Below, in pieces: positions 30,455 to 30,737 of a stretch of DNA of 64,000 nt. The position numbers and the translations under genes were made by a program. Origin of the DNA: Methanococcus aeolicus Nankai-3 (lineage in GTDB: Archaea; AGJL01; Methanococci; Methanococcales; Methanococcaceae); contig NC_009635.1 of assembly GCF_000017185.1 (NCBI RefSeq), positions 248,563 through 312,562 on the forward strand. The letters run 5' to 3'. The notes beneath the pieces are model-generated. The model did no database searches and was not told where the DNA came from. It saw only the letters and a program-made list of their open reading frames with translations. Every line of letters begins with the position of its first letter. The stretch's first letter is position 1.

Positions 30455-30737
30455 TATAGTAAGTTCAATAACTGTCCCTTATCCCTTCTATTATTAAACA
30501 AAATCCTTTTAGGATTTTATACAAAAGCATAGCTTTTGTAAACGAATTTTCATTTATTGGTAATAGGTTAGATTTTAGCTTTAATAGGATCTCTAAATTT
30601 TCCTCTGAAAAATTTATACGACCTTAAAAACTCCTCCGGAATTTTGGGTCGTAAAAACTCCTCCGGAATTTTGAGATCGTAAAAATCGCTTTGCGATTTT
30701 GAGACGGTTTAGTGAAAAAGACCGAAGATTGACTATA
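30455..30737. mobile_element. MITE copy D (long form, 283 bp) carrying hairpin modules
   Basis: Termini TATAGTAAGTTCAATAACTGTCCCT ... GAAAAAGACCGAAGATTGACTATA. The interior is largely the reverse complement of copy E (59419-59655), and its left part matches copy F. Confidence 0.8.
30619..30705. repeat. three tandem hairpin units of about 28 nt inside MITE D
   Basis: CGACCTTAAAAACTCCTCCGGAATTTTGGGT / CGTAAAAACTCCTCCGGAATTTTGAGAT / CGTAAAAATCGCTTTGCGATTTTGAGAC. Each unit is an A-run, GC-rich stem, loop, stem and T-run. Confidence 0.75.

Follow-up and report, generated by a model that had tools for sequence, protein, structure and literature searches.

Hairpin arrays inside small mobile elements of Methanococcus aeolicus Nankai-3

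How do short hairpins, whose stems go on pairing while their sequences differ, come to be packed inside the small transposable elements of an archaeon? The question is raised by a 64 000-nucleotide stretch of Methanococcus aeolicus Nankai-3 (contig NC_009635.1, positions 248,563 to 312,562, GC content ~30%), called the window here, and within it by the element at 30455-30737, which belongs to a family of MITEs (transposable elements of the miniature inverted-repeat type). The initial annotation had likened its hairpins to REP (repetitive extragenic palindromic) sequences and bacterial interspersed mosaic elements (BIMEs) mobilized by REP-associated tyrosine transposases (RAYTs). We find that these hairpin modules are best called a variant of modular MITE or of mosaic palindromic repeats, in a previously unrecorded form. 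Our preferred explanation, to which we give about an even chance, is that they are palindromic DNA units that are prone to slippage and travel as passengers of mobile elements.

For most of the region, M. aeolicus PL15/Hp (CP104873; genome paper, PMC10113651) offers another allele. Exact-protein look-ups found the window genes in CP104873; those for 47864-50173 and 61268-62875 gave no match, probably because the start of the longest ORF (open reading frame) is not that of the called gene. Aligned blocks of PL15/Hp are 98.4-99.96% identical to the window and are separated by insertions and deletions (indels), so the two are distinct sister strains; Logan contigs from SRR9434582 match the window at 100% identity. 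Locus L004 of CP104873 corresponds to window 18131-39732, and L016 to window 50666-64000 plus 7 kb further. Two more CP104873 loci, L019 (21 kb) and L020, were fetched through paralogues of the gene tnpB. We also used a Methanothermococcus sp. Ax23 locus (L005), a contig of a Methanothermococcus metagenome-assembled genome (L006), the syntenic M. okinawensis locus (L021, 20.7 kb) and an intact copy of an IS200/IS605 insertion sequence (IS) from another sample (L022). The ATP-cone protein, used to seek orthologous loci, led to Methanothermococcus sp. Ax23 as the nearest genome, at 75% amino-acid identity and with intergenic DNA that could not be aligned.

Hairpin units and their pairing

A unit is a perfect hairpin with a 3-nt loop on a stem of 8-10 bp, the stem being made of an A-run, a GC core of 2-4 bp and a T-run. 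The loop is almost always closed by 5′-C...G-3′ and reads R-N-A on one strand. All the hairpins that the initial annotation had named are present, at most a few bases from where it had placed them, as are the tandem ~28-nt units (59456-59502) and a hairpin with an ATA loop common to two of the elements. The family exceeds chance. When stems of 7 bp or more, loops of 3 nt and two or more GC pairs are required, the whole window has 16 perfect hairpins, against 3.8 ± 1.8 in dinucleotide shuffles, and those with a stem of at least 8 bp number 10 against 1.4. Intergenic DNA outside the MITEs (9.2 kb) has six, against 0.25 ± 0.52 in the same kind of shuffles (maximum 3 in 200). In folds of the long MITE copies every unit closes into a local hairpin by itself, and the z-scores range from −5.3 to −6.5; for the copy called E below the values are −5.9 as DNA and −5.3 as RNA.

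The tops of the hairpins have a signature that the initial annotation had not mentioned. We took a census of 29 distinct 7-bp cores from ~115 kb of M. aeolicus and ~42 kb of Methanothermococcus sequence, no single core occurring at more than four places. The closing pair is C...G in 23, G...C in one and A/T in five, and C:G makes up 17% in shuffled sequence. R-N-A loops top 26 of the 29 cores (GAA 11, AAA 8, GGA 2, GTA 2, ATA 2, AGA 1), against 31% in shuffled sequence, and 15 cores have a GNA loop (GAA, GGA or GTA). The preferred hairpin top is thus 5′-C-(G/A)NA-G-3′, and the exact apices CCGAAGG, GCGAAGC, TCGAAGA and CCGGAGG occur among the units. Of these, CCGAAGG, GCGAAGC and CCGGAGG are classic extra-stable mini-hairpins of DNA. 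The sequence d(C-GNA-G) forms an extra-stable DNA mini-hairpin, in which C:G closing is ~3 kcal/mol better than G:C and of which RNA versions are less stable (PMC13037366, PMC3201870). The units match such mini-hairpins, d(GCGAAGC) included, in their apex and in near-exclusive C:G closing; those known from biology, however, occur as lone hairpins, in replication origins of single-stranded DNA or in promoters of phage N4, whereas here they form arrays inside transposable elements. The apex bias suggests that the stability of the hairpins is of consequence, and that this is more likely to be so in DNA than in RNA.

Stem pairing was scored in 12 units picked by array position or flank homology, not by pairing ability. 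All 96 cells pair (three of them as G.U on one strand), seven of the eight stem positions change on both sides, and none of 500 shuffles reaches any observed measure. The earlier claim that pairing is kept while sequence changes therefore stands for these units, but three units of the element at 30455-30737 (u0, u1 and u2) carry C.A mismatches. Two more compensated differences connect orphan units with units of the arrays or of insertion sequences: GC to AC with GC to GT at 31389, and, at L020 15283, CAAAATCC to CAATATCC with its counterpart change in the opposite arm. Since pairing is kept across units of differing sequence, it must be of some importance that a single-stranded nucleic acid can form these hairpins.

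The annotation had gone further and taken covariation to imply selection, which we do not accept. The orthologous hairpins that were compared between the two strains (the solo ones, and the units kept in both alleles of the copies called D and E below) have no substitutions in the alignments and scans, so covariation is scored between duplicated units only, not between substitutions at one site. Its main example set AAAATCCT against AAAATCTC as equivalent positions of two elements; these are non-orthologous units, H1 and H3, since the PL15/Hp allele of the first element reads H1-H2-H3-H4. For annotators the lesson is that a ‘compensatory change’ between copies of a modular repeat may arise from comparing different units of an array. 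There is also a known rival to selection, as template switching in replication can make and repair perfect hairpins without it (PMC8794818).

Extended to the whole family, that rival would make the hairpins a neutral mutational by-product, formed by fold-back copying in AT-rich non-coding DNA, with neither self-spread nor selection. The stems are indeed perfect and the loops very short, new hairpins arise at or within existing ones, and the process is documented elsewhere (PMC8794818). The hairpins are also lineage-specific, since every 20 kb of Methanobrevibacter loci with a like GC content holds just 1-2. Blind templating, however, would not be expected to favor C:G closing and R-N-A loops, and ordinary intergenic DNA is nearly free of the hairpins. 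Unit types recur across loci and genera with conserved flanks, which indicates descent and spread rather than repeated origin. We regard a purely neutral by-product as improbable.

The carrier MITE and its arrays

Six elements of the window have the 15-nt terminal inverted repeat TATAGTYAATCTTCR at both ends; it matches 10 times, where 1.4 matches would be expected. The six are modular, and hairpin units are confined to the long copies D, E and F. The copies and two fragments are as follows.

24089-24186, + strand: MITE copy A, short, 98 bp, no hairpin units
29301-29419, − strand: MITE copy B, short, 119 bp, without hairpin units; adjoins the ATP-cone gene at its stop codon
30455-30737, + strand: MITE copy D, long, 283 bp including flanking TA; array 1 (H1, H4) and array 2 (u0-u3)
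59419-59655, − strand: MITE copy E, long, 237 bp, inverted relative to D; array 2 only
60519-60703, + strand: MITE copy F, long, 185 bp; H3 and H4; insertion polymorphism
62944-63073, + strand: MITE copy G, short, no hairpin units; absent from CP104873
28056-28081, − strand: solo fragment of the MITE left-end inverted repeat
6905-6945, − strand: degraded MITE right-end fragment (TTTTGAGA...CGGTTTAG..., compared with the right end of copy D); holds ACCGTGC-GAA-GCACGGT at 6910-6926

In copy D the left inverted repeat is degenerate (TATAGTAAGTTCAA) and the right one reads TATAGTCAATCTTCG on the reverse strand. The fragment at 6905-6945 had been reported as a solo hairpin at 6905-6935; its hairpin, ACCGTGC-TTC-GCACGGT, is there at 6910-6926, but as part of a MITE end and not as an independent module. 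Another stretch, 2100-2170, had been called a probable fragment of the repeats; it is only weakly similar, with TTTACGACC and a GCC-GAA-GGC mini-hairpin in common.

Comparison of the strains reveals the target duplication. The site of copy F is empty in CP104873, where it reads GCGATATT-TA-ATGTTTAG with a single TA; the window has TA-element-TA. Copy G is flanked by the pair TA/CA, and its site in CP104873 is cleanly empty. Because F and G are present in the window and their sites in CP104873 are empty, this is a MITE with TA target duplication that either moved or was lost precisely after the two strains diverged. L019 and L020 hold eight more copies (at least eight in ~50 kb of CP104873), most of them 68-136 bp long and hairpin-free. 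The total is ~15 non-coding copies of 68-283 bp in ~115 kb, or ~1 per 8 kb in this biased sample. If confirmed, this would be a currently active MITE family in Methanococcus, a genus generally regarded as poor in mobile DNA, at ~1 copy per 8 kb sampled. In the literature that we searched, neither MITEs nor hairpin repeats are described from Methanococcus. The window ORFs and gene calls examined include no transposase gene. The MITE-end pattern TATAGTTAATCTTCAANNACTGT had no match in a genome collection apparently without M. aeolicus. Its one match in metagenome contigs lay in eukaryote-like DNA and the one match of the right-end pattern in viral contigs lay in a contig of 50% GC; both were rejected as chance.

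The element resembles the TA-duplicating MITEs, such as the Correia elements of Neisseria and the Stowaway elements derived from IS630-Tc1-mariner. Like them it has terminal inverted repeats, a TA duplication, a length of 70-280 bp, no coding capacity, many intergenic copies and presence/absence differences between strains. It differs in that no partner transposase, and no autonomous element with its inverted repeats, was found within the ~115 kb of M. aeolicus sequence. To our knowledge no arrays of hairpin units have been described from the interior of elements in those families. The BOX element of Streptococcus pneumoniae, boxA-(boxB)n-boxC, is like the long copies a modular, non-coding, MITE-like repeat with a variable tandem internal module and a stable fold. 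BOX modules, however, are bacterial, 45-59 nt long and conserved in sequence, whereas the M. aeolicus arrays are a set of different short hairpins, laid out in the window as follows.

30500-30540: array 1 of copy D; H1, AAAATCCT-TTT-AGGATTTT, at 30500-30518, and H4, TACAAAAGC-ATA-GCTTTTGTA, at 30520-30540
60566-60588: H3 of copy F, ATAAAATCTC-TTC-GAGATTTTAT
60590-60606: H4 of copy F, which like H4 of copy D reads (A)CAAAAGC-ATA-GCTTTTG(T)
30595-30700, − strand: array 2 of copy D; u0 at 30595-30615, u1 at 30627-30645, u2 at 30654-30672, u3 at 30682-30700
59456-59561: array 2 of copy E; u3 at 59456-59474, u2 at 59484-59502, u1 at 59511-59529, u0 at 59541-59561; all four pair perfectly

Unit u3 reads AAAATCGC-TTT/AAA-GCGATTTT in both copies, and u2 of copy E reads AAAACTCC-GAA-GGAGTTTT. 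In copy D, u1-u3 are spaced 27-28 nt apart with their R-N-A loops and T5 runs on the − strand, and the single C.A mismatch that each of u0, u1 and u2 has on the + strand is a G.T on the − strand. Tandem Repeats Finder reports a period of 27-28 nt at 30625-30685 (period 27, 2.2 copies) and at 59451-59531.

Array 1 is longer in the sister strain. In CP104873, copy D has H1 (AAAATCCT-TTT-AGGATTTT), H2 (ACAAAATC-GAA-GATTTTGT), H3 (AAAATCTC-TTC-GAGATTTT) and H4 (ACAAAAGC-ATA-GCTTTTGT). The window allele retains H1 and H4, with the 44 nt of H2 and H3 deleted between GATTTT repeats; copy F retains H3 and H4, and a third long copy in CP104873 (L020 7050-7316) has the permuted order H3-H4-H1-H2. Array 1 of copy D thus reads as the remnant of an array of 44-nt two-hairpin super-units, (H1 H2)(H3 H4).

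Array 2 is longer in the window. Copy D differs between the strains by the 44-nt indel of array 1 and by a 55-nt one (u2 and u1), both within the arrays, and its flanks are 99.96% identical. Copy E has the same 55-nt difference, the CP104873 allele being the one without u2 and u1. The D, E and L020 7050 copies of CP104873 have only u0-u3, with an identical junction of TTTTTACGA and TCGTATAAA, against u0-u1-u2-u3 in D and E of the window. The arrays change quickly, as the two strains differ by these blocks although the DNA on either side is 99-99.96% identical. Both strain indels are two-hairpin blocks with their boundaries in short direct repeats, and the array is a variable-number tandem repeat, with head-to-tail units and an allele copy number that differs between strains. 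Units u1 and u2 of the window copy D are identical chimeras, each joining the 5′ arm of u2 of copy E to the loop and 3′ arm of its u1, which we take as probable traces of gene conversion and of unequal exchange within an array that changes fast.

We propose that the turnover of units, by gain, by loss and by exchange of copies, comes about through slipped-strand mispairing, through unequal recombination and through gene conversion from one copy to another. Each of these would be favored where single-stranded DNA folds into stable hairpins, and the carrier elements would spread the units around the genome. Pairing would be preserved in that only units that fold stably are propagated or repaired, through mechanical bias, template-switch correction (PMC8794818) or both. 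A host function is not needed to explain the data and none is shown; the arrays may be neutral. If confirmed, these would be hairpin arrays that change faster than point mutations accrue between strains, of use as a strain-typing marker and as an archaeal system of hairpin-driven repeat instability.

Five points weigh against slippage-prone units as the explanation. Both the extrusion of DNA hairpins in vivo and the slippage origin of the indels are things that we infer. Copies D and E show the identical 55-nt difference and one junction is found in all three long copies of CP104873, so that simple independent slippage would be insufficient and gene conversion or a site-specific process would be needed. 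The three stem mismatches of copy D are all G.T on one strand, which would also fit selection at the RNA level. AAA loops, in 8 of the 29 cores or about a quarter, are not of the GNA mini-hairpin type. Finally, densities and context statistics are rough, as two loci in the ~115 kb M. aeolicus sample were picked for tnpB.

Genes, transcripts and insertion sequences

Some hairpins lie outside the MITEs. The two solo pairs that had been reported at 31388-31445 and 50733-50767 were recovered, and there is one single hairpin.

31383-31444: orphan pair in a divergent promoter region; TAAAATCAC-AAA-GTGATTTTA at 31389-31409 and CAAAAATC-TTT-GATTTTTG at 31426-31444
50727-50761: orphan pair; CAAAATC-AAA-GATTTTG (H2-like) at 50727-50743 and ATTTTCC-TTC-GGAAAAT at 50745-50761
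56942-56958: orphan CAAAATC-TTT-GATTTTG (H2-like) in the divergent intergenic region upstream of an ELP3-like gene

The hairpin at 31389-31409 has flanks like those of u3 (GATCTC..TTTTAT) and one G:C to A:T change compensated on both arms. The pair at 50727-50761 lies between two + strand genes and its CP104873 copy is identical; no orphan unit varies in presence or absence between the two strains. Divergent genes flank half of the six orphan hairpins (31389, 31426 and 56942), which occupy two of the four orphan sites. L019 has zero such hairpins, and L021 has three, all in the left end of a tnpB element. Entire 21-kb loci, with ~17-20 intergenic regions, have no such hairpin beyond mobile-element DNA. 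By their placement, then, the units appear tied to mobile-element DNA and not to genes.

This placement bears on a reading at the RNA level, in which the units are portable bidirectional terminators, or marks that define, stabilize or process 3′ ends, selected for RNA structure and spread by MITE and IS insertions. We consider it unlikely, though it has points in its favor. An A-tract, a stem-loop and a T-tract are what the units have in common with the bidirectional intrinsic terminators of bacteria. A T5 run follows each hairpin of array 2, in D and E on the sense strand of the gene that ends just upstream, and all three copy D mismatches are G.U-compatible on that strand; the RNA fold z-score of copy E (−5.3) counts here too. 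The left-end hairpin of IS200 blocks incoming transcription, which also counts for this reading.

Methanococcus RNA polymerase, however, stops at U-tracts without a hairpin (PMC8716108); Term-seq of Methanococcus maripaludis and other archaea gave U-tract terminators without preceding hairpins (PMC8716108, PMC7515710). Nor are the units consistently at gene 3′ ends, and the long copy at L020 7050 is oriented opposite to its upstream gene. The C-GNA-G triloop is a DNA stability motif, and no Rfam family matches the units: at the gathering threshold Rfam gave only a tRNA-Ser in the window and none in L005, L006 and L016, and permissive E-values added sub-threshold matches at chance level. A scan for terminators of bacterial type gave 6, 10 and 9 sites where 8.1, 10.6 and 7.8 were expected, which is no enrichment, although it misses these hairpins because the T-run belongs to the stem. 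With half of the orphan hairpins between divergent genes, with loci that are hairpin-free outside mobile-element DNA and with the hairpin-less U-tract terminators of M. maripaludis, a general terminator role seems unlikely.

The other mobile DNA that carries the modules is of the IS200/IS605 type. The initial annotation had advised a search for such a gene. None was found among the window ORFs and gene calls examined, but an element at L016 18850-20330, ~7 kb past the right end of the window in CP104873, has a tnpB of 399 aa and an upstream Y1 tnpA, which is interrupted by a frameshift lying between the HUH motif (DDDHIHIH) and the region of the catalytic tyrosine (SPSYF). Neither of the two further tnpB copies examined, in L019 and L020, has a tnpA, and no intact close M. 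aeolicus TnpA is named among the best 120 database matches. Just past the window, at L016 13187-13600, lies a gene-less derivative of this IS that resembles the palindrome-associated transposable elements (PATEs). It contains AAATCCC-GAA-GGGATTT and ACAAAATCC-GAA-GGATTTTGT, has a CCCTTCC-TTAC-GGAAGGG hairpin at each end, matches the 3′ end of tnpB at 95% identity over 128 nt and includes a 64-nt stretch 95% identical to L006. MITEs derived from IS200/IS605 (PATEs), with their subterminal hairpins, likewise have hairpin-rich non-coding ends, and this derivative carries the same modules.

Around the left-end hairpin of these insertion sequences, CCCCTTCC-GTAA-GGGAGGGG, the number of extra modules is graded.

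Intact IS, L022: 0
L019: 2
L020 and the L016 derivative: 4
M. okinawensis L021: about 7

The transposase-binding hairpin of IS200/IS605 is itself unlike the modules, which are extra insertions absent from L022. Methanothermococcus sp. Ax23 has a mosaic hairpin array of 280 nt, in which one unit has the flanks of a MITE unit (ATCTCAAAAC...TTTTTNCGA). It also has two copies of a highly structured ~390-nt repeat without an Rfam match (L005 12510-12900 and 14090-14470), one of which has gained a 36-nt two-hairpin insert resembling H3 and H4 and has lost an internal segment. Because the modules are present in the graded IS left ends and in the Ax23 arrays, they appear to predate this MITE, to be independent of it and to accumulate in hairpin-rich IS ends.

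We return to the likeness with REP and BIME. REP sequences are defined as imperfect palindromes of 20-40 nt with a GTAG/GTGG (or CGTC) head, GC-rich imperfect stems, one or a few sequences in >100 copies and a dedicated single-copy RAYT, which REPs typically flank (PMC2817692, PMC3733652). The M. aeolicus units share with the REP, BIME and REPIN systems of Gammaproteobacteria that they are short intergenic palindromes in mosaic, partly alternating arrays that change rapidly and have a link to IS200/IS605. Loop orientation alternates in array 1 (TTT, GAA, TTC, ATA), and in array 2 the R-N-A loops are all on one strand. The units differ in being AT-clamped, perfect and heterogeneous in their stems, and in riding inside other transposable elements. 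Their flanks (TCTC, ACCC, GTAC, GTAT, TTGT and CTCT) include no conserved head of the GTAG/GTGG or CGTC kind, and there are at least 13 different stem cores, against one or two conserved REP classes. No Y1 or RAYT-type gene occurs among the window ORFs and gene calls examined. We therefore do not uphold the REP/BIME-like identity, for want of a conserved head, of uniform stems and of a RAYT gene in the window.

An archaeal counterpart of REP, BIME or REPIN could still be proposed, in which units or doublets would be tiny elements, themselves non-autonomous, that a Y1 transposase of IS200/IS605 type mobilizes in trans as single-stranded DNA. The modules do accumulate in or beside the transposase-binding hairpin, graded across copies and species, and a unit with the flanks ATCTCAAAAC...TTTTTNCGA sits in the IS-derived array of Ax23. 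Both strain indels are exact two-hairpin blocks, the 55-nt one recurring at the same junction in separate MITE copies; array 1 alternates as BIMEs do, and a Y1 tnpA exists in M. aeolicus. The boundaries in short direct repeats are, however, compatible with slippage, and no orphan unit is present in one strain and missing from the other. The units have neither a head nor a sequence that is conserved, and they do not resemble the CCCCTTCC-GTAA-GGGAGGGG hairpin of the IS; the sole M. aeolicus tnpA seen is the frameshifted one. We find this counterpart doubtful.

Equally tentative is a broader proposal, that the A-run/C-(G/A)NA-G/T-run hairpins are an undescribed class of self-propagating DNA mini-hairpins in Methanococcales. 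They would settle in the non-coding parts of unrelated transposable elements (the TA-duplicating MITE, and IS200/IS605 ends and their derivatives) and be gained or lost as precise blocks of one or two hairpins by way of single-stranded DNA, through a Y1 (HUH) transposase in trans or through hairpin-directed template switching at replication forks. If true, the class would be a functional archaeal analogue of REP/BIME with an independent origin. The C-GNA-G apex and the stepwise build-up at IS ends raise the question of whether REP-like propagation of single-stranded-DNA hairpins occurs in archaea.

Two other identities were considered for the units. CRISPR repeats and archaeal origin-recognition boxes were rejected, as there are no spacers, the units are internal to MITEs and the likeness ends at AAAATC. 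When each hairpin was taken as a tiny palindromic insertion flanked by TA, the flanks were inconsistent, and this check is uninformative since TA is self-complementary.

Other features of the region

A 28-nt AT-rich tandem repeat, TTTATAGTATTTCTTTATATTGTCATATA, lies in 2.7 copies at 31489-31566, where the genes for Usp and Band_7 diverge from a common promoter region. Near it the coordinate offset to CP104873 shifts by 28 nt, equal to one repeat unit, as seen from the offsets and not from an aligned indel.

The 8-nt palindrome GGAGCTCC has 55 sites in the window (for example at 2739, 5986, 6262, 6574, 27993, 31290, 53077 and 59661), where 0.16 ± 0.47 would be expected. Coding as well as intergenic DNA contains it, at ~9 per 10 kb, and it is equally dense in three other M. 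aeolicus loci. The Methanothermococcus loci have 0.6-1.9 per 10 kb, though the inner GAGCTC is common there. It resembles the cyanobacterial ‘highly iterated palindrome’ HIP1 and is not mentioned in the PL15/Hp methylome paper.

Beside the tRNA-Ser gene (33254-33340) there is ~1.15 kb without a long ORF (33349-34502), where CP104873 has a DUF2540 gene and a tyrosine integrase (L004 4622-5825); this is probably a strain-variable integrated element, or its remnant, at the tRNA gene. A defense-type gene cluster at 243-5402 includes a GmrSD-like endonuclease, a PD-(D/E)XK nuclease and a UvrD-like helicase, and a split HerA-like ATPase lies at 13816-15336. Five tandem archaellin (flagellin) genes occupy 34557-38737, with 703-nt repeats 99-100% identical among three of them, and CP104873 has four flagellin calls.

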